Sequence record: PP180004
DNA length: 54,557 bases
Strand: one strand, 5' to 3'
DNA from: Escherichia phage mEp044
In this document: positions 12,488 through 54,429 of the stretch, one piece after another
Numbering within the stretch: position 1 is the first letter of the stretch
Layout of the letters: every line of letters begins with the position of its first letter
Notes under the pieces: model-generated
Database searches by the model: none
Told to the model about the DNA's origin: nothing
What the model saw: the letters and a program-made list of their open reading frames with translations, nothing else
Position numbers and translations under genes: made by a program

Positions 12488-12726
12488 TGGGGTATCAAAT
12501 CATGATCGAAGAAAAAGAAGTTGATAAAGAAATGCCTGACACAGCAGATGACTATGTCACTTTTAACGGCGGCCTGTATGAGTTCGAAACGTCTGCGGGC
12601 TGGCACGATAAATGGCCTATGCCAACGCGCAAGGAATTAAGCGAACGTAAAACATTTGGCGAAGATGCCGAACGCCTGGCCAATAACAAATGGCTTGATA
12701 AGTTTATTGCGGAGGGTGGCAAATGA
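12484..12726 (+). CDS. hypothetical protein
   Basis: 80-aa ORF. Confidence 0.4.
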   Translation: MMGYQIMIEEKEVDKEMPDTADDYVTFNGGLYEFETSAGWHDKWPMPTRKELSERKTFGEDAERLANNKWLDKFIAEGGK

Positions 12727-12836
12727 ACCTTGCAAAAATTGCCGCATTGCTTGCGGCTTTGTCTATCGCTGTGCTGTATCTCAGCGTATCGCTTTATATC
12801 ACGGTAGCGATCATTAAACTCATTGCTAACATGTGA
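12723..12836 (+). CDS. 37-aa hydrophobic single-helix membrane peptide
   Basis: manual translation MNLAKIAALLAALSIAVLYLSVSLYITVAIIKLIANM. Confidence 0.35.
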   Translation: MNLAKIAALLAALSIAVLYLSVSLYITVAIIKLIANM

Positions 12837-12844
12837 GGTTAATC

Positions 12845-12967
12845 ATGAAAGTCGGTAAGGATATTGTGACGGTCGCGTTTTGCATTATTTGCTTCCTGTT
12901 TTCGGTTGTATTTTGTGGCGCACTTGCGGCGGTGATCAGCTTTATTGGTAAAGGGGTGATATTATGA
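12845..12967 (+). CDS. 40-aa hydrophobic membrane peptide
   Basis: manual translation MKVGKDIVTVAFCIICFLFSVVFCGALAAVISFIGKGVIL. Confidence 0.35.
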   Translation: MKVGKDIVTVAFCIICFLFSVVFCGALAAVISFIGKGVIL

Positions 12968-13236
12968 TTCCGTGGAATGCAAAAGCTGGTGATCTGGTTG
13001 TTTTGCCTGCATATCGTAGTGATCCTGGTCTTGTGGTGCTGAATAAAGCATGTATAGAAATTGAGCGCCCGATCCTGGTCAAATACCTGGACGGAACAAT
13101 TATAGAGCCTATTTTCTTCGACAAGATTGAGCTGAAGGCCCGTAATGTTCGCGTTAAGCCGTTCCGGGCTTATGTTGAAGACCACTGGCGGAAATTGTTC
13201 GCCGGACTGAATGGGATGTACGGCGTATGGCTATAA
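12964..13236 (+). CDS. hypothetical protein
   Basis: 90-aa ORF. Confidence 0.4.
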   Translation: MIPWNAKAGDLVVLPAYRSDPGLVVLNKACIEIERPILVKYLDGTIIEPIFFDKIELKARNVRVKPFRAYVEDHWRKLFAGLNGMYGVWL

Positions 13237-13418
13237 AATTGGTGAAAGTTAAAGATTTAAAAGGCGGCGAAAAACTCCGCGCATGGTTCGGATATGAATT
13301 TATTGCTACTGCCTTTCATTTCGGGAAAGGGGGCCAGGTAACAATTTTTGATGAAGATTACGACGAAGTTGGGCAATGGCATCTTGAGCAATATATCGAG
13401 GTGTTAAATGAAAATTAA
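13227..13418 (+). CDS. hypothetical protein
   Basis: 63-aa ORF. Confidence 0.35.
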   Translation: MAIKLVKVKDLKGGEKLRAWFGYEFIATAFHFGKGGQVTIFDEDYDEVGQWHLEQYIEVLNEN

Positions 13419-13740
13419 ATTCCATAAAGCATATGATAGCCAGACAAACAAGCTATCACTATTTATTGAGTTCGAACGCCGGATCGTGGTTGTTCCTTAT
13501 TCTCGGCGCTTTAATGATGCAGCAGGGCGGAGACAGTTCGCGTTAGATATGTTGTTACGCGGTTGCGGCCTTATGCGCCCGCTATCTGATTTAAAACGGA
13601 TGATGCCTGGATCGTTCGGTCAGATTGATGAAATTGAAGTAAGCCAGGAAGAGCTAAAACGGGCGCGTGATTTGTTCCTTTCAAGCGAAGGAAACCCGTT
13701 TAATCCAGAAACTGAAATGAAATGGCATCACCAACTATAA
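13408..13740 (+). CDS. hypothetical protein
   Basis: 110-aa ORF. Confidence 0.4.
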   Translation: MKIKFHKAYDSQTNKLSLFIEFERRIVVVPYSRRFNDAAGRRQFALDMLLRGCGLMRPLSDLKRMMPGSFGQIDEIEVSQEELKRARDLFLSSEGNPFNPETEMKWHHQL

Positions 13741-13752
13741 AGGATAAATATC

Positions 13753-14373
13753 ATGAACGACATCAAAACAGCTTATTCACTCGGAAGCGATGGCATGTTA
13801 ATCACTCGCTACGCTGAAGATGCAAGTTTTCACGAAGTTGAAACGAAGGATTATCACGAAGTATTAAAAGATATGGAATCTGGCGCGTATGACGCAGATT
13901 TGAATCTGGCTTTACAGATTGTTGATATTATGATGGACGCGTCGATCCGCGATTATGTGTCTTTGGACGCTGAAGAAAAAACTGCTATAGCTCGTTATGT
14001 CTTCTGCCTAACTTTCGTGAAACGAATGGAAGAGGAATATGGTCGCGTGCCAGTGCCGGAAGAAATTGACCCGCTGGCGTTCGGAAGCGCTGTTATTTTC
14101 CCGTTAGATGAAAATCATACTGGTAGCGTTGCGCTGTATTCTATGCGCGGCGTAATGAAAAGTATTTTTGAGGCCAAAGCGCTACAGAAGTGCATTGATG
14201 AAGGGCACAGCGAAGAAGACGTAATGGCTATCATGCCGTTGTTTTATGGAGAAATGGTTGGTAATAACATGCGTGCAAATGATTTAGGTGTGCAGGCGGC
14301 TATAACTGTTCTTAATGAAGCACGGAAAATGGCACAGCCAATGCCTGAGCCGGAAAAACGTGTACTGCATTAA
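13753..14373 (+). CDS. hypothetical protein
   Basis: 206-aa ORF. Confidence 0.5.
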   Translation: MNDIKTAYSLGSDGMLITRYAEDASFHEVETKDYHEVLKDMESGAYDADLNLALQIVDIMMDASIRDYVSLDAEEKTAIARYVFCLTFVKRMEEEYGRVPVPEEIDPLAFGSAVIFPLDENHTGSVALYSMRGVMKSIFEAKALQKCIDEGHSEEDVMAIMPLFYGEMVGNNMRANDLGVQAAITVLNEARKMAQPMPEPEKRVLH

Positions 14374-14472
14374 CATCGTGATTGCGATCACATAGATATA
14401 CATTTTGTGTTGTGATCGCGTATCCGTTTTGTAAACTGAAATCAAAAGGTTTACGGTACGGAGGAAAACAAG

Positions 14473-14691
14473 ATGCCGCGCGAATTGATGCTTTATTGCG
14501 TAGAAGGTGGCGTGGGACATGATGCCTACGTCGCAGGGAAAAGCTATCCAGCAGATGAAGTGCTTTCTAATATGCACTTCCGGGAAAATGAACACCAGGT
14601 GTCTGTATGGAAGCGATGCGTTGATGGCATTGAGTTAGTTAGCCTAGAAAGATATTTGGGTAAATTTGACTACGCATTGATCGAGGCTTAA
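14473..14691 (+). CDS. hypothetical protein
   Basis: 72-aa ORF preceded by GGAGGAAAA. Confidence 0.45.
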   Translation: MPRELMLYCVEGGVGHDAYVAGKSYPADEVLSNMHFRENEHQVSVWKRCVDGIELVSLERYLGKFDYALIEA

Positions 14692-14789
14692 CTATGGACG
14701 AAGCATTGCTATTCATGTGCATTTGCTGGGGTTTTATTGCCTTATGCCTGTTTATCAGGTGGTTTATTGAATACCACATGAGGTGAGTT

Positions 14790-14981
14790 ATGAAAAAGGT
14801 TGGCGAATACATGATACCGGATAACGCTAAATTAGCCGGGATAGGTCAACTTGGTTGTTATTACTATAACTGTGTCGGTGATATTTATCAGGTCAGTATT
14901 GTTGGTGGCGTACAGCATTTTCGTCTTATGCACTTTGAATTAAGCGAACTTAAAAAGGCGGTGTTAATGTATGAAGTTTAA
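14790..14981 (+). CDS. hypothetical protein
   Basis: 63-aa ORF. Confidence 0.35.
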   Translation: MKKVGEYMIPDNAKLAGIGQLGCYYYNCVGDIYQVSIVGGVQHFRLMHFELSELKKAVLMYEV

Positions 14982-15174
14982 ACAGTATAAAGAATGGAAG
15001 ATTCCAGAGGAAGCAAAAAAGGCAGCGCCCGGAAGGTTTTCTGGCGTTTATTTTTATATGGATGGTAAATGGTATTTCGGCAGCAGGCCGGATCACTATT
15101 ATCAAGAATTATGCAAATCTCACACATGGGACATTAAGGAGCGCGTGCAAGGCGGTGTAATAGACGAGGTTTAA
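14971..15174 (+). CDS. hypothetical protein
   Basis: 67-aa ORF. Confidence 0.35.
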   Translation: MKFKQYKEWKIPEEAKKAAPGRFSGVYFYMDGKWYFGSRPDHYYQELCKSHTWDIKERVQGGVIDEV

Positions 15175-15175
15175 A

Positions 15176-15412
15176 ATGGTTAAGAGCTTTTTTAACTGGT
15201 TGGGGGCGTGGCTTTTGGCTACGCTTTTTGTTTTCTTGGCGGCCCTGACTGTTATCGGTATTATCATGCTGGTGGCTATGTTTATTACGTGGTCGCTGCC
15301 TGAATTTAACGACATTGGGAATATTCTTTTTGCAGCCCGCGCTTTATTGGCTGTTAGCGCATTCATTGGTTTTTGCTGGACTGTGGCGCCTGATTGGGGT
15401 GATGAATGGTGA
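15176..15412 (+). CDS. small membrane protein (two predicted TM helices)
   Basis: 78 aa, hydrophobic. Confidence 0.4.
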   Translation: MVKSFFNWLGAWLLATLFVFLAALTVIGIIMLVAMFITWSLPEFNDIGNILFAARALLAVSAFIGFCWTVAPDWGDEW

Positions 15413-15650
15413 TCCTATGGCTTTGTTCAATATGTCAGAACTGCAATTTAATGCCGTAAAAGCCGCCGCCCGCGCTGCACTTTCTGCTTGCAAAGCGGAG
15501 GTAGAGAAAAACGGCTACAGCGATAAAGCTACACGGCTGATATTAGAAAAGCATTATCGCAAGGTCGCCCCACTAATCAGTATTGAGCGTTTTGTATGGT
15601 TGGTGGGGTATCTCAATAACCGATGGGGGACTGACCAGGATTATTTTTAG
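15315..15650 (+). CDS. hypothetical protein (start uncertain)
   Basis: 111-aa ORF overlapping the previous gene. Confidence 0.3.
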   Translation: MGIFFLQPALYWLLAHSLVFAGLWRLIGVMNGDPMALFNMSELQFNAVKAAARAALSACKAEVEKNGYSDKATRLILEKHYRKVAPLISIERFVWLVGYLNNRWGTDQDYF

Positions 15651-15653
15651 TGT

Positions 15654-15663
15654 GGGGGGGGGG
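15654..15663. repeat. G10 homopolymer forming the Shine-Dalgarno region of the Dam-like gene
   Basis: ten consecutive G between the upstream stop (15650) and ATG 15669. Confidence 0.8.
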
Positions 15664-15668
15664 TAATA

Positions 15669-16208
15669 ATGAAAAATGATTTCGGAGGCAGCAACACGCC
15701 GAAGGAAATAAAAGACCTGTGGCAGACGCCTAAACCAGTTTTCAGGGGAATGGACCGCGAGTTTGAATTTGTCGCTGACGTTGCGGCAAACAAGGCAAAC
15801 GCGCTAGTTCCGCGATATATAACCGAAGAAATGGACACGTTGCATTATCCGTGGGGAGCGGTGGCAATGCCTGGTGAGTATGTCTGGATGAATCCGCCAT
15901 ATTCGAATCCCGGGCCATTCGTTGATAAGGCGGCGCTAGAACATCATCGAAATCACATAGGTTGCGTAATGTTATTGCCCGCTGACGTTTCTGTTAGCTG
16001 GTTTATGAACGGCATTGAGACGGCAAACGAATGCCGATTAATCACGCGCGGTCGGCTGGCGTTTATCAATGCTGCGACAGGGAAACCAGTGAGCGGAAAC
16101 AATAAAGGGAGCTTGTTTTTGATCTGGCATCCACGATGCAGACATGAATGTATTTTTACACACATAACACGTAAAGAGCTATACGCAAGAGGTGCAGATA
16201 ATGACTAG
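15669..16208 (+). CDS. dam: phage-type DNA N6-adenine methyltransferase (Dam family)
   Basis: 179 aa; NPPYS catalytic motif and WQTP N-terminal motif. Confidence 0.8.
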   Translation: MKNDFGGSNTPKEIKDLWQTPKPVFRGMDREFEFVADVAANKANALVPRYITEEMDTLHYPWGAVAMPGEYVWMNPPYSNPGPFVDKAALEHHRNHIGCVMLLPADVSVSWFMNGIETANECRLITRGRLAFINAATGKPVSGNNKGSLFLIWHPRCRHECIFTHITRKELYARGADND

Positions 16209-16698
16209 TGCGGCAGATTTACTACGAATCGCAGCGGAAACAATTGAGCAAAGAGGTAAACAAAACGGATACGACAGAAAAGAGGAAAAATCGGCGCCAA
16301 AAATAGCCACTATATACAACGCTAAGAAGGGGGCAAATTTAACACCACTTGATGTATGGGATCTGTTGATTTGTCTCAAGGAGGCGCGATTAGAGGCCAT
16401 TTTAGTTAATGGAAGCGATCCGACAGACACACTGATAGATTTAATTAGCTACAGCGCACTGAAAGCGGAGCAAGTATTAACGGAGCGTGAGAAAGAGCAA
16501 AAGGAAAAACAGGCCGCTTTTGATCTCCCTATTGGCGGATTGGTAAAAGGTGAGGCGATAACCAGTTGTAAGGGATTGCCACCTTCTATGCTTGCCCCTC
16601 AATGTGGCTGCATTCCAACTAGTGTTGGCGTGAAGTTTAATAGGGATAATGCTATTCGTGACAAGAGGTATGACCCAAATGAAAAAGGTGGCAATTGA
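16201..16698 (+). CDS. hypothetical protein
   Basis: ORF 16192-16698, start taken at ATG 16201. Confidence 0.45.
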   Translation: MTSAADLLRIAAETIEQRGKQNGYDRKEEKSAPKIATIYNAKKGANLTPLDVWDLLICLKEARLEAILVNGSDPTDTLIDLISYSALKAEQVLTEREKEQKEKQAAFDLPIGGLVKGEAITSCKGLPPSMLAPQCGCIPTSVGVKFNRDNAIRDKRYDPNEKGGN

Positions 16699-17182
16699 CA
16701 GGTTATTGGCCTGCGTTTATGTCGCCGTTTTCGTGATCATCAACCTTATTGTTAACCATTGCGGCCCGTGGGTAATTCCGATCACCACGGTAGCCGCTGT
16801 GTGTGTCAATATGATGATCCGTGACTTCCTGTTGTATGACGGCGGCCTGAAATGGTCTGCTACAACATGCGCCGCCGCTGGCGCAATTACTGTGCTGATA
16901 AATTACGACGCCGGAATGGTGGCGATAGCGTCATTCGTTGCGGTTGTTTCCGGTGCGCTTATTTCTGGCGGCGTTTACCGGGTTTTACCTGGTGATTTCG
17001 ATTCTAAGCGCTGGCCTGCAAATATAGCGTCCGCCATTGGCGATGCGTTAATTTTCCCGACGCTATCGTTTATGGCATTTATGCCTGAAATATCAGCTAT
17101 GCAATTTATCTCAAAAATGGCAGCGGTAACGGTGATCACTATCATCATGCGCCGATATTTCACGTTTGAGGGCAGAAAATGA
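16679..17182 (+). CDS. multi-pass integral membrane protein; weak resemblance to VUT/YhhQ-type transporters
   Basis: ORF 16649-17182 trimmed to ATG 16679 preceded by AGAGGT; about 5 hydrophobic helices. Confidence 0.45.
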   Translation: MKKVAIDRLLACVYVAVFVIINLIVNHCGPWVIPITTVAAVCVNMMIRDFLLYDGGLKWSATTCAAAGAITVLINYDAGMVAIASFVAVVSGALISGGVYRVLPGDFDSKRWPANIASAIGDALIFPTLSFMAFMPEISAMQFISKMAAVTVITIIMRRYFTFEGRK

Positions 17183-17937
17183 GCAAGGCTAAACACTGGT
17201 TAAATAACTGGCTAAGAAGTTGGGTTGTATGGTCGCTGTACGACGGCAGCGGGTACGCCGTTAAAGATTGGGCGGAAGCAGGATATAAATGCTATTGCTT
17301 CAACTATGACGGCGCAAATCACGGCGATTATGAAGGCGTTAAAATAATTCATCCAAATATTGAATATGTCAACGTCTGGATTGATAGCCATTTCCTGGTA
17401 ATGTTCTCCCCTGAATTGTCTGTATATCCAGATCCTGACATTATCTTGGGTTTTCCGCCATGCGACGATCTCGCTGTGTCTGGCGCTCGCTGGTTCGCTG
17501 ACAAGCGAAAAGAAGATCCTGACTTCCAGGTGAAGGCGGCGAATAGCGCCAAACTGGTAGAAAAACTGGCGAATATGCACAACGTGCCGTGGATGGTGGA
17601 AAATCCTGTTGGCGCACTGTCAACTCTATGGCGTAAACCTGATTTTATATTCAACCCGTGCGCTTACGGTGGCTACCTGCCGGAAGATGACAAACATCCT
17701 GCTTTCCCGGATGTTTATCCGCCGCGCGACGCGTACACGAAAAAAACTTGCATATGGTGCGGCAACGGATTCAAACAGCCGCTTTTTAGACCTGTAGATC
17801 TTAACTCTGGTGATAACCCTGGATGGGCGAAAACAGGAGGCAGGACGAAACGAACAAAGATGATTCGCTCACTAACGCCGCGTGGCTTTGCCCGTGCTGT
17901 ATTCCTGGCTAACCATAACAGCGCTTTACCGGACTGA
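17179..17937 (+). CDS. short C5-cytosine methyltransferase-like protein
   Basis: 252 aa; motif I-like LYDGSGY..AGY, motif IV-like GFPPCDD..SG, motif VI-like ENPVG; no obvious target-recognition domain. Confidence 0.55.
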   Translation: MSKAKHWLNNWLRSWVVWSLYDGSGYAVKDWAEAGYKCYCFNYDGANHGDYEGVKIIHPNIEYVNVWIDSHFLVMFSPELSVYPDPDIILGFPPCDDLAVSGARWFADKRKEDPDFQVKAANSAKLVEKLANMHNVPWMVENPVGALSTLWRKPDFIFNPCAYGGYLPEDDKHPAFPDVYPPRDAYTKKTCIWCGNGFKQPLFRPVDLNSGDNPGWAKTGGRTKRTKMIRSLTPRGFARAVFLANHNSALPD

Positions 17938-35108: not shown

Positions 35109-35137
35109 CCCCGGCGCAATGCCGGGGATTTTTTTTG
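35109..35137 (+). terminator. rho-independent terminator after the capsid gene
   Basis: hairpin ccccggc-gcaat-gccgggg followed by T8. Confidence 0.7.
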
Positions 35138-51864: not shown

Positions 51865-54429
51865 ATGATTTACACAACTGGAACAATTGCCATCAACGGC
51901 AACACTGTTAAAGGCACGGGAACAGACTTTTCCGCGCCGCTTTCTCTCATTCGTGTAGGGTGCACGCTCATTGCTATCAGCAACCCCATCCAGATCTTTA
52001 CCGTTACTGAAATCAAGAGCGGCACTGAACTATCAGTGACGCCAGCGGCTAACCCTGCAATTGCTGCCGGGACAAAATTCAGTATTCTACTTTCTGACTC
52101 GATCTCAGTTGATGGGCTTGCCCAGGATGTAGCAGAAACGCTTCGTTTTTATCAGGAAAAAGAAGATGAAATAACAAGCGCAATAGATGGCAGCAATATT
52201 GGCTTGGGGCCAGAGCCGCGAGATTGCACCGATATATCAGGCGATCCGTCTTCTTACGTTGGCTTTTTGCGCATAAAGGAAACGGCTAAGGGTTTTCCTT
52301 CTGTAGCGGCTGGTGAATCATTTTTGAGTGGATTCATCTGTCAACGAGATGTCACGCCTTCATATACAGGCGTCTTTGTCGGTTGGGCTACGCGATCACT
52401 TTATACTTATACATGGGTAGCCACATCAGGTCCGCAATGGACACGCAACGCAAGAAAAGATGAAGTTGACAGGCTTGTCCAAAGAACAGGAGAAACGCGC
52501 GTATGCTCTCAAAACGCAAATAAATTCCTTACTGTCTATGATTCTGGATCGTGGGGTTATTACGATTCAGAGGCCAGCAAATGGCTACCGCTTCCAATTC
52601 TTGCTGGCGGCACTGGCGCAACATCGCTTGATGATGCAAAAAAAAATCTTCAGATCCCTGAAGGCGGTCTATCAAAAACGATAACCATAAGCGCCCCATC
52701 AGGTATGGAAGATGGAAAATACTATCCTATAATCGTGTTTACTGGTGAAACAAACGGAGGAGCTTTTCCGTGTCCGGTTGAAATTGTAACTGTTGGCGGA
52801 CCTTCCACCTCAGAAATGAACAGCAATACATTTTCTGGTTATGTCAGATGCGGTGGATGGTCAGACATCAGAAATATAGCGTATGGGTACTATACTGCAT
52901 ACGAACCAAAAGAGGTTGCTATACTTTGCATTAAGGGATCAACCAAAGACTACGCTCAACATATAGCTTTTTATGTAAGCAATAAAGCGTTTCCAATTAA
53001 AATCCAAGTAGGATATAAAGCGCAAGTATTCGTGCCCACTAGTGATTATTCTTTGGGAACAAACGGGGTAAAATTCAAATTTGGCGTGTCAACATCAGAA
53101 GAGGGTAACACAGAAAACAGCGTTACTAATATACTTGATTTTACTGGTGGCCAATCAGGTTTTTACAGTAACGCATTATTCAGGCAAGGATACTCAACAA
53201 ATTTTGCGCTTACTAATAAATTAAACTCAACAGATCCGTTTATTGTTACGCTGCCGTCATTCACAGTTTTAGGGTCTATTAATTGCACTAAAGGACTTAT
53301 TGCATATGGCGAGGACGTAACCAACAGGACATTTGTATCACGGCGCACCAATGCAGCAGCCAATGAGACGCTTGATCAGTCAGAGTTCAGGGCAGCAGAA
53401 AAAGCCGCGCAAATTGTTGTTCGTGACATGACTGCATCAAACCATATGTTTTTTAATTTTAATGGTGATGGTACTTTTAATGCACCAGGAGGTCTTGTAT
53501 CACAGACTGGCACTGACTGGAACGGTCAGCAGTCAGATAACATAAACAGGTTTAAGCCGATTGCTGGTCAAATAAATACACCGGAAAATAATGTTGTTTA
53601 TGGCGGTTTTCATGTCGGTTTTAGCGGCAACTACGCAACCCAGTTCGCTGGGCGCAATTCAAAATTCTACGCCAGAAGTTTTGAGGCAGGAGTAGACAAA
53701 GGATGGTGTCAGCTTGCAACGCTTAACAATGAGCTTGTGCAAAGGTGGACGGGATACCAACAATTTAAATCAACGGATTTTTTTGCTGATACTTTCACAA
53801 GAAAAATAACTCTAGCCGTCTCAAATTCATCGGCAAGAAATGCCGAGCTTTATTTGTGGGGCGCTGAAAACCGTCCCACCGTACTTGAGTTCAAGATAAA
53901 GGATCCAGACACAGGTAGTGGGCTTTCATGGGCTTTTTACGCACAGCAAAACCAGGATGATTCATGCCAATTTAATGTTAACGGTGCTGTAAACTGCACA
54001 ACAGTTAACCAGTCATCTGACCGCGACTTGAAAGACAACATTCAGGTTATAGGTGACGCAACTGAAGCCATCCGTAAAATGAACGGGTACACTTATACCC
54101 TCAAGGAAAACGGCCTGCCTTACGCTGGCGTTATCGCTCAGGAGGTCATGGAGGCACTGCCGGAAGCTGTGGGGTCGTTTACTCATTACGGTAAAGCATT
54201 GCAAGGACCGACCATTGACGGCAACGAGCTACGCGAAGAAACGCGTTATCTCAATGTTGACTACGCCGCAGTAACTGGTTTACTTGTCCAGGTTGCACGA
54301 GAAACGGATAACCGCGTCACCGAACTGGAAGAAGAAAACGCAAGCCTACGCGCTAACATTGCCGCAATGGATGAGCGTATCGCAAAACTTGAAGCGCTTG
54401 TCAGTAAGTTGACAGAAGGCGAAAAATAA
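51865..54429 (+). CDS. tail fibre/tailspike with C-terminal intramolecular-chaperone (peptidase S74) domain
   Basis: 854 aa; C-terminal SSDRDLKDNIQ ... LNVDYAAVTGLLVQ and coiled-coil end typical of S74 autoproteolytic chaperone domains. Confidence 0.75.
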   Translation: MIYTTGTIAINGNTVKGTGTDFSAPLSLIRVGCTLIAISNPIQIFTVTEIKSGTELSVTPAANPAIAAGTKFSILLSDSISVDGLAQDVAETLRFYQEKEDEITSAIDGSNIGLGPEPRDCTDISGDPSSYVGFLRIKETAKGFPSVAAGESFLSGFICQRDVTPSYTGVFVGWATRSLYTYTWVATSGPQWTRNARKDEVDRLVQRTGETRVCSQNANKFLTVYDSGSWGYYDSEASKWLPLPILAGGTGATSLDDAKKNLQIPEGGLSKTITISAPSGMEDGKYYPIIVFTGETNGGAFPCPVEIVTVGGPSTSEMNSNTFSGYVRCGGWSDIRNIAYGYYTAYEPKEVAILCIKGSTKDYAQHIAFYVSNKAFPIKIQVGYKAQVFVPTSDYSLGTNGVKFKFGVSTSEEGNTENSVTNILDFTGGQSGFYSNALFRQGYSTNFALTNKLNSTDPFIVTLPSFTVLGSINCTKGLIAYGEDVTNRTFVSRRTNAAANETLDQSEFRAAEKAAQIVVRDMTASNHMFFNFNGDGTFNAPGGLVSQTGTDWNGQQSDNINRFKPIAGQINTPENNVVYGGFHVGFSGNYATQFAGRNSKFYARSFEAGVDKGWCQLATLNNELVQRWTGYQQFKSTDFFADTFTRKITLAVSNSSARNAELYLWGAENRPTVLEFKIKDPDTGSGLSWAFYAQQNQDDSCQFNVNGAVNCTTVNQSSDRDLKDNIQVIGDATEAIRKMNGYTYTLKENGLPYAGVIAQEVMEALPEAVGSFTHYGKALQGPTIDGNELREETRYLNVDYAAVTGLLVQVARETDNRVTELEEENASLRANIAAMDERIAKLEALVSKLTEGEK

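Follow-up and report, generated by a model that had tools for sequence, protein, structure and literature searches.

A ten-guanine Shine-Dalgarno tract ahead of the dam gene of Escherichia phage mEp044, probably a slippage-expanded allele with little effect on translation

The characterised phage members of the Dam family (the Dam proteins of phages T1, HP1 and VT2) are GATC-specific, and we know of no report of a homopolymeric ribosome-binding site (RBS) for dam genes of this type. Switching based on simple-sequence repeats (SSRs) is considered rare in E. coli, a host proficient in mismatch repair. In Moraxella catarrhalis, one-base changes in a poly-G tract of 9–10 residues reportedly alter the expression of uspA1. 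To our knowledge a contingency tract embedded in the Shine-Dalgarno (SD) element is a placement that has not been described for phase-variable methyltransferases, and literature searches for an SD-embedded poly-G switch or for a phase-variable phage Dam found no precedent. In contingency loci and phasevarions the repeat lies inside an open reading frame (ORF) or in a promoter spacer and produces ON and OFF states (PMC12707154), and in the tlpB-hp0102 leader of Helicobacter pylori a G homopolymer of 6–16 residues tunes expression gradually through the small RNA (sRNA) RepG (PMC8295292).

The mEpimmI phages are temperate, non-lambdoid siphoviruses from human faeces; six have been sequenced, mEp044 (PP180004) by Illumina MiSeq, and the genome paper makes no mention of homopolymers (PMC11893012). 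The window analysed here is the whole 54,557-nt stretch of the mEp044 record. It is the genome of a mEp021-like (mEpimmI) temperate coliphage, collinear over its first 25 kb, from base 2, with mEp010 and mEp013, and the tract region is 87–94% identical to mEp013, mEp010, mEp554, mEp021, mEp515 and MagusPhagus. An initial annotation of the window had proposed that a run of ten Gs ahead of a methyltransferase gene could be phase variable. Our analysis favours a more modest reading, in which the tract is probably a hypermutable but functionally near-neutral, at most graded, SD allele expanded by slippage.

Direct reading of the window gave the junction order ...GATTATTTT-TAG-TGT-GGGGGGGGGG-TAATA-ATG(15669), which by codons is GAT TAT TTT TAG, TGT, GGGGGGGGGG, TAATA, ATG AAA AAT GAT (Table 1). 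The ten Gs that had been placed between the upstream stop and the dam ATG are accurate to the base. The gap from the ipe stop to the dam ATG is 18 nt, and no second purine-rich or SD-like element was found in it besides the G run, which is therefore the sole SD-like element of dam, as had been claimed.

Table 1. Features at and around the ipe-dam junction, in window coordinates.
Feature	Position	Strand	Remarks
ipe-like small ORF	15402-15650 (82 aa, ATG 15402) or 15417-15650 (77 aa, ATG 15417)	+	Collinear with mEp021 ipe
ipe-like ORF TAG stop	15648-15650	+	TGT (3 nt) separates TAG from the G tract
G10 homopolymer	15654-15663	+	Direct reading; Shine-Dalgarno-like element of dam, expanded allele of the family G5 site
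TAATA spacer, tract to dam ATG	15664-15668	+	Direct reading; length independent of tract length
dam, phage N6-adenine DNA methyltransferase, 179 aa	15669-16208	+	PF05869, TIGR01712
DUF6378 gene	16201-16698	+	PF19905 E 2e-7; ATG overlaps the dam end (ATGACTAG)

The dam product matched the Pfam Dam model PF05869 with an E-value of 2e-51 and 174 bits (cut-off 28) over positions 1–166 of 169, and the NCBIfam model TIGR01712 (phage N-6-adenine-methyltransferase equivalog) with 141 bits (cut-off 97), so that the match was full-length and both curated cut-offs were exceeded. The ORF was uninterrupted and contained the catalytic (D/N)PPY motif as NPPY at Dam residues 75–78 (nt 15891–15902). Together the PF05869 and TIGR01712 matches and the NPPY motif point to a Dam-like N6-adenine methyltransferase, in agreement with the initial annotation of the downstream gene. 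More than 45 copies from IMG/VR prophages or phages encoded proteins 89–98% identical to it; an exact-protein look-up of the window's Dam gave no match, and no homologue with a solved structure was found for it.

For the ipe-like ORF there were three possible starts (TTG 15315, ATG 15402 and ATG 15417). It shared approximately 87–94% identity with mEp021 ipe ("inducer of pleiotropic effects") and with mEp013_39, and its product had no Pfam or NCBIfam family. In exact-protein look-ups the 82-aa form returned an identical product on four ENA contigs and the 77-aa form returned no match. According to the GenBank record JQ072023, ipe encodes peptides that are toxic to E. coli and contribute to a haemolytic phenotype.

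Overlap of the DUF6378 start codon with the end of dam makes dam an internal cistron of an operon, and the dam-DUF6378 arrangement is likewise annotated in mEp021, mEp013 and E. coli prophages. The annotated order in mEp021 is repressor, terminator, erf, ssb, anti-RecBCD ... ipe, dam, DUF6378, membrane protein, continuing with a second putative methyltransferase, ninF, ninG, rus and Q. There dam belongs to a long rightward early lytic operon, between erf/ssb and ninG/Q and downstream of predicted terminators, and for this reason dam expression would not be expected in stable lysogens. Two genes downstream of dam in the window there may be a second, poorly classified DNA-modification gene, a 252-aa ORF (17179–17937) whose mEp021 homologue, mEp021_33, carries the annotation "putative DNA cytosine methyltransferase"; the window ORF had no Pfam or NCBIfam match at E ≤0.01.

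The ipe-dam junction was compared across six GenBank phages and 47 close IMG/VR contigs, 18 family members among metagenome pattern matches, and 10 of the 35 complete E. coli genomes in which such a prophage is present. Distinct 300-nt contexts were counted after duplicate removal (n = 51, window included). G5 was present in 41 of the 51 contexts, 29 of them reading TAA-GGGGG-CGTA-ATG, while G4 was found in two, an interrupted run (GGGTGG, GGTGG) in three, G6 in two (TAA-G6-CGTA, in two different E. coli strains), G9 in two (mEp554 and the IMG/VR contig 2695420718_000019, here L046) and G10 in the window only. The 18 metagenome family members all carried G5 or an interrupted run, the remaining pattern matches being due to chance. 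The commonest G5 form, UAAGGGGG, is a near-perfect and conventionally strong SD; it pairs with the 3' end of 16S rRNA at eight positions, one of them a G·U pair. A comparison of tract length among relatives had been suggested as a check on the phase-variation proposal, and length was found to vary (G4, G5, G6, G9 and G10) rather than to be invariant; since 41 of the 51 contexts keep G5, the site is not a family-wide contingency locus.

The mEp554 allele, TAA-G9-CGTA, is the modal allele with four additional Gs, and the L046 allele, TAGTGT-G9-TAATA, is the window allele minus one G. As the two G9 alleles lie in different contexts, expansion beyond six Gs occurred at least twice. Pattern scans of viral contigs for TAGTGTG8+ returned only L046 again, and scans for TAA-G6+-CGTA returned nothing. 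The two G6 carriers, E. coli WCHEC025970 (L115) and E. coli GN05505 (L116), are unrelated complete genomes with an otherwise modal site, which shows that single-G gains also arise from the short allele.

Over the surrounding 3.5 kb L046 is approximately 90% identical to the window, and over 15597–15745 one G is the only difference between them. The four ENA metagenome contigs that encode the identical 82-aa Ipe (L276–L279) read TAG-T-GGGGG-TAATA-ATG, and from 15630 to 15715 they differed from the window by no substitution, only by a 7-nt tract difference. One local haplotype was found with G5 (L276–L279), G9 (L046) and G10 (window) and with zero flanking substitutions over 85–149 bp, so that on the haplotype of the window tract length differs while the flanks are conserved, as at contingency loci. 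Because the tract is the sole difference among these same-haplotype carriers, its length must have changed by slippage, in at least two lineages. The occurrence of the long allele in at least two divergent phage backgrounds also indicates that it is neither a one-off error nor a laboratory accident.

We give very little credence to a sequencing or assembly artefact, in which the homopolymer was miscalled and the true tract is shorter (e.g., G5) or of some other length. Homopolymer lengths are error-prone on all platforms, L046 and the window differ by one base (G9 against G10), and the genome was probably assembled from Illumina reads (inferred from PMC11893012), so that the exact length may be off by one. 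However, three independent assemblies from different sources have 9–10 Gs at this exact site in two sequence contexts, inflation from G5 to G10 is rare in short-read assemblers, the other G/C runs in the window are all clean G5, and a one-base error would leave every conclusion unchanged.

The junction haplotype itself is a small mosaic patch, identical between phages with flanks that are only 87–90% identical. This suggests that recombination moved the segment comprising the 3' end of ipe and the 5' end of dam, long tract included, between backgrounds. Presence of the long allele in two phages with flanks approximately 90% identical could mean that the allele is not neutral and that selection maintains it or has spread it.

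In the run-length table of the 54.5-kb window G10 was the only G/C run longer than 5. A length of exactly 5 was reached by 28 G/C runs and lengths of 6–9 by none; a first-order Markov model of the window predicted approximately 8.8 G/C runs of at least 6, against G10 alone observed, and approximately 0.02 runs of at least 10 (0.016 for G, 0.004 for C). Three overlapping G8 matches were observed, all within the tract, versus 0.43 in dinucleotide shuffles, and G5 words were rarer than in shuffles (34 observed versus 51 ± 9; other G5 sites include 15625–15629 and 15202–15206). This looks like genome-wide avoidance of slippage-prone G/C runs with G10 as the single exception. In a genome that otherwise avoids G/C runs of six or more a tolerated G10 stands out, and this counts against the near-neutral reading that we prefer.

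Two further simple-sequence features were noted in the window. The longest A/T run, A9 at 52638–52646, lies inside a long + strand ORF (51865–54429) whose product, at approximately 854 aa, is as large as a tail fibre or host-specificity protein; within this coding sequence the run could be a site of frameshifting or transcriptional slippage. At 35109–35136, just upstream of an ORF start, CCCCGGCGCAATGCCGGGGA is followed by T8, resembling a textbook intrinsic terminator.

Indel rates in E. coli increase exponentially as homopolymers lengthen, and G:C runs of only 8 bp stand out as outliers in that genome (PMC8510543), so G10 should be the most indel-prone site of this phage. Ten Gs exceed the length at which hypermutability is looked for at contingency loci (about 8 or more for G/C), and the earlier suggestion that the tract is long enough to be slippage-prone holds on the same data (PMC8510543). 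We infer that the G10 tract is hypermutable and that a run of 9–10 Gs is much more indel-prone than the G5 alleles; phage or lysogen populations therefore probably carry minority G9 and G11 variants. Mismatch repair would hold slippage rates at the tract well below those of classical contingency loci.

The initial annotation had argued that changes in length would alter spacing and hence translation. In the G5, G9 and G10 carriers of this haplotype (L276–L279, L046 and the window) the tract ends 5 nt short of the dam start codon, separated from it by the same TAATA spacer. As the tract itself is the SD and its 3' edge is fixed, gain or loss of Gs shifts only the 5' edge; the SD-AUG distance stays at 5 nt and the spacing argument fails. 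The SD was modelled for synthetic tracts of n = 0–15 in the window context, using ViennaRNA duplexfold against ACCUCCUUA and the Salis spacing penalty. The translation model is a simplified, home-made RBS calculator that gives predictions only; it takes no account of G-quadruplexes, of standby sites, of ribosomes stalling where the SD is over-long or of coupling to the termination of ipe translation.

Modelled aligned spacing was constant for all n. The SD pairing term was −5.3 kcal/mol at n = 4, −9.0 kcal/mol at n = 5, −9.9 kcal/mol at n = 6, −10.9 kcal/mol at n = 7 and −11.0 kcal/mol at n ≥8, a plateau that matches the seven-pyrimidine stretch CCUCCUU of the 16S tail, and initiation values were identical for n = 8–15 and near-identical at n = 7. 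When local mRNA folding was included, relative initiation was 0.87–1.0 for n = 7–11, approximately 0.3–0.4 for n = 5–6 and ≤0.05 for n ≤4, so that the modelled OFF state is reached only at n ≤4, six steps from G10. Natural alleles ranged in modelled pairing from −5.8 (GGUGG) to −11.5 kcal/mol (UAAGGGGGG), with the modal UAAGGGGG allele at −10.5 versus −10.9 to −11.0 kcal/mol for G9/G10. By this model the expanded tract would provide no more than a mild gain compared with the G5 form it came from and none over the family norm, and the model predicts no effect when G10 slips by a single step. At contingency loci a one-unit change alters expression by virtue of the placement of the tract; here it changes no ORF, no promoter-like site and no distance, and it falls on the modelled plateau.

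These results bear on true phase variation, in which slippage in the G tract would reversibly switch or strongly tune Dam translation and create lysogen or phage subpopulations that differ in adenine methylation, a phage-borne epigenetic switch. We consider this improbable, even though contingency loci use a range of tract lengths that includes 10, G5, G9 and G10 occur on one haplotype with an independent G9 in mEp554, two phage backgrounds that have diverged both retain the long allele, and graded control by a G-repeat in a 5' untranslated region has a precedent in H. pylori tlpB (PMC8295292). Against it stand the SD-AUG spacing, which is unaffected by length, the modelled plateau at n ≥7 with OFF only at n ≤4, the position of the tract in neither an ORF nor a promoter spacer, and the stable G5 of approximately 80% of relatives. 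Expression in lysogens is also doubtful for a gene of an early lytic operon behind predicted terminators, and active mismatch repair in E. coli lowers switching rates. Since E. coli Dam already methylates GATC, a phage enzyme with the specificity of the T1, HP1 and VT2 proteins would be redundant with host Dam, and a lysogen-level switch seems unlikely unless the specificity of the window enzyme differs. The lytic early operon position and the likely redundancy with host Dam argue against a phasevarion.

Other routes by which the tract could act were considered. A consensus scan of 12500–17500 found no sigma-70-like −35/−10 pair spanning the tract, and a promoter-spacer mechanism was rejected. 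No plausible ORF reads through the tract on either strand, and a 63-aa minus-strand ORF (15647–15838), antisense inside dam, was without support. A frameshift or fusion mechanism was also rejected: the tract follows the ipe stop, and the ipe-dam gap, which is 9, 10, 11, 12, 13 or 18 nt when the window (18) and its relatives are taken together, does not conserve the frame across the 9–13 nt gaps of the relatives. The stop of ipe and the start of dam share one reading frame in the window (TAG TGT GGG GGG GGG GTA ATA ATG, 15648–15671), and UAG read-through would fuse Ipe to Dam. The shared frame, which is not kept in the G6 or G9 relatives, is probably incidental.

The minimum free energy fold placed the tract in the loop of an AU-rich stem formed by the ipe 3' end with dam codons 2–5. 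An SD-in-loop hairpin was discarded as a mechanism, with a local stem of −4.0 kcal/mol (z = −0.7 versus shuffles) and a different small hairpin in GATTAC-type relatives. With G-quadruplex energies, ViennaRNA predicted no G-quadruplex for n ≤10 and a two-tetrad intratract G-quadruplex for every n ≥11. Such a structural threshold, at which approximately 11 Gs would create a leader G-quadruplex burying the SD, a ribosome trap, or a binding site for a C/U-rich sRNA, would leave G10 one slippage step from a low-expression state. It would fit the onset of the predicted quadruplex at n ≥11 and the lack of any natural allele above 10 among the 51 distinct contexts. We regard it as highly improbable: two-tetrad G-quadruplex energies are generous and the predicted jump of −21 kcal/mol is not quantitatively credible, the lack of alleles above 10 rests on only three long alleles, and the AU-rich hairpin is weak by the values just given and not kept in the GATTAC-type relatives. 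We know of no E. coli or phage sRNA partner for the dam G tract.

A wider proposal is that the G tract acts as a heritable, slippage-driven rheostat on phage Dam translation, with lengths of approximately 9–11 on a steep part of the response; we find this very doubtful. From 11 Gs upwards, for example, a G-quadruplex or an over-stable SD might supply the steepness. The phage of a single burst would then differ in how far their DNA is methylated, a form of bet-hedging between hosts whose restriction is methylation-sensitive and hosts whose restriction is methylation-dependent. Because Dam overproduction blunts methyl-directed mismatch repair, high-Dam variants could raise the slippage rate of their own tract in a self-reinforcing mutator loop. 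Overall, a genuine rheostat or switch of any kind, the structural variant included, appears unlikely.

The slippage-expanded SD allele that we favour could be explained as follows. The G10 tract would be a replication-slippage expansion of the G-rich SD that precedes dam throughout the mEp021-like (mEpimmI) coliphages, with G5, usually UAAGGGGG at 4–5 nt from the AUG, as the presumed ancestral and modal state. The anti-SD (5'-CCUCCUU-3') could pair in any register of the run while the 3' edge keeps the distance to the AUG, and the predicted pairing energy saturates at 7–8 Gs, near the value of the common UAAGGGGG allele. With pairing in any register, a fixed 3' edge and saturation, little effect of length changes on Dam synthesis is to be expected; in the simple model this would be a mild, saturating gain of approximately 3-fold relative to the same-haplotype G5, and not an ON/OFF change. 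Dam itself is probably made during lytic growth from an internal cistron of the early operon and, by analogy with other phage orphan methyltransferases, would likely serve to methylate phage DNA.

If the tract is only a slippage-expanded RBS, it offers a small, clean natural case of a G-rich SD becoming a homopolymer with the SD-AUG geometry intact, and a caution that phase variation cannot be inferred from tract length alone. It is also the one position of the genome where assemblies or variant calls are likely to disagree, and could be used as a strain marker among the mEpimmI phages. If length did tune Dam output, the logic of contingency loci would reach further, into a temperate coliphage and into the SD element.

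Compared with the canonical mEpimmI dam RBS, UAAGGGGG-N4-AUG, the site in the window likewise lies between the stop of ipe and the AUG of dam, and it shares the G-only core, the spacing of 4–5 nt and a similar predicted anti-SD pairing (−10.5 kcal/mol for the canonical site versus −11.0 kcal/mol). The canonical site has five Gs and a UAA prefix, whereas the window has ten Gs preceded by UAG and then UGU, and the canonical G5 is not slippage-prone while the window tract is long enough to be. With the orphan Dam proteins of the T1/HP1/VT2 type (PF05869, TIGR01712) the window protein belongs as a full-length, above-threshold member with the NPPY motif. The uspA1 poly-G tract is similar to that of the window in lying upstream of the start codon and in having 9–10 residues, but it reportedly acts on transcript abundance from far upstream of the AUG in an SSR-reliant bacterium, whereas the window tract is the SD.

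Phasevarions based on Type III mod or Type I hsd genes in Haemophilus, Neisseria and Helicobacter likewise combine a homopolymeric tract with a DNA methyltransferase gene and show length differences between close relatives for which replication slippage is presumed (PMC12707154). Their repeats lie in an ORF or a promoter spacer, whereas the window tract lies in the SD and changes neither frame nor spacing, and, unlike mod and hsd products, the window enzyme is a small orphan phage Dam-family methyltransferase, encoded in the lytic operon of a coliphage. If the tract does act, the best functional analogy is the tlpB-hp0102 leader, both being length-variable G homopolymers in an untranslated leader. 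The tlpB G-repeat, however, is upstream of and separate from the RBS and is read by a dedicated C/U-rich sRNA, whereas in the window the repeat is the RBS itself and shows only the G-repeat half of a RepG-tlpB type of system. The tract is in these terms an SSR length polymorphism in a 5' leader, which is a known kind.
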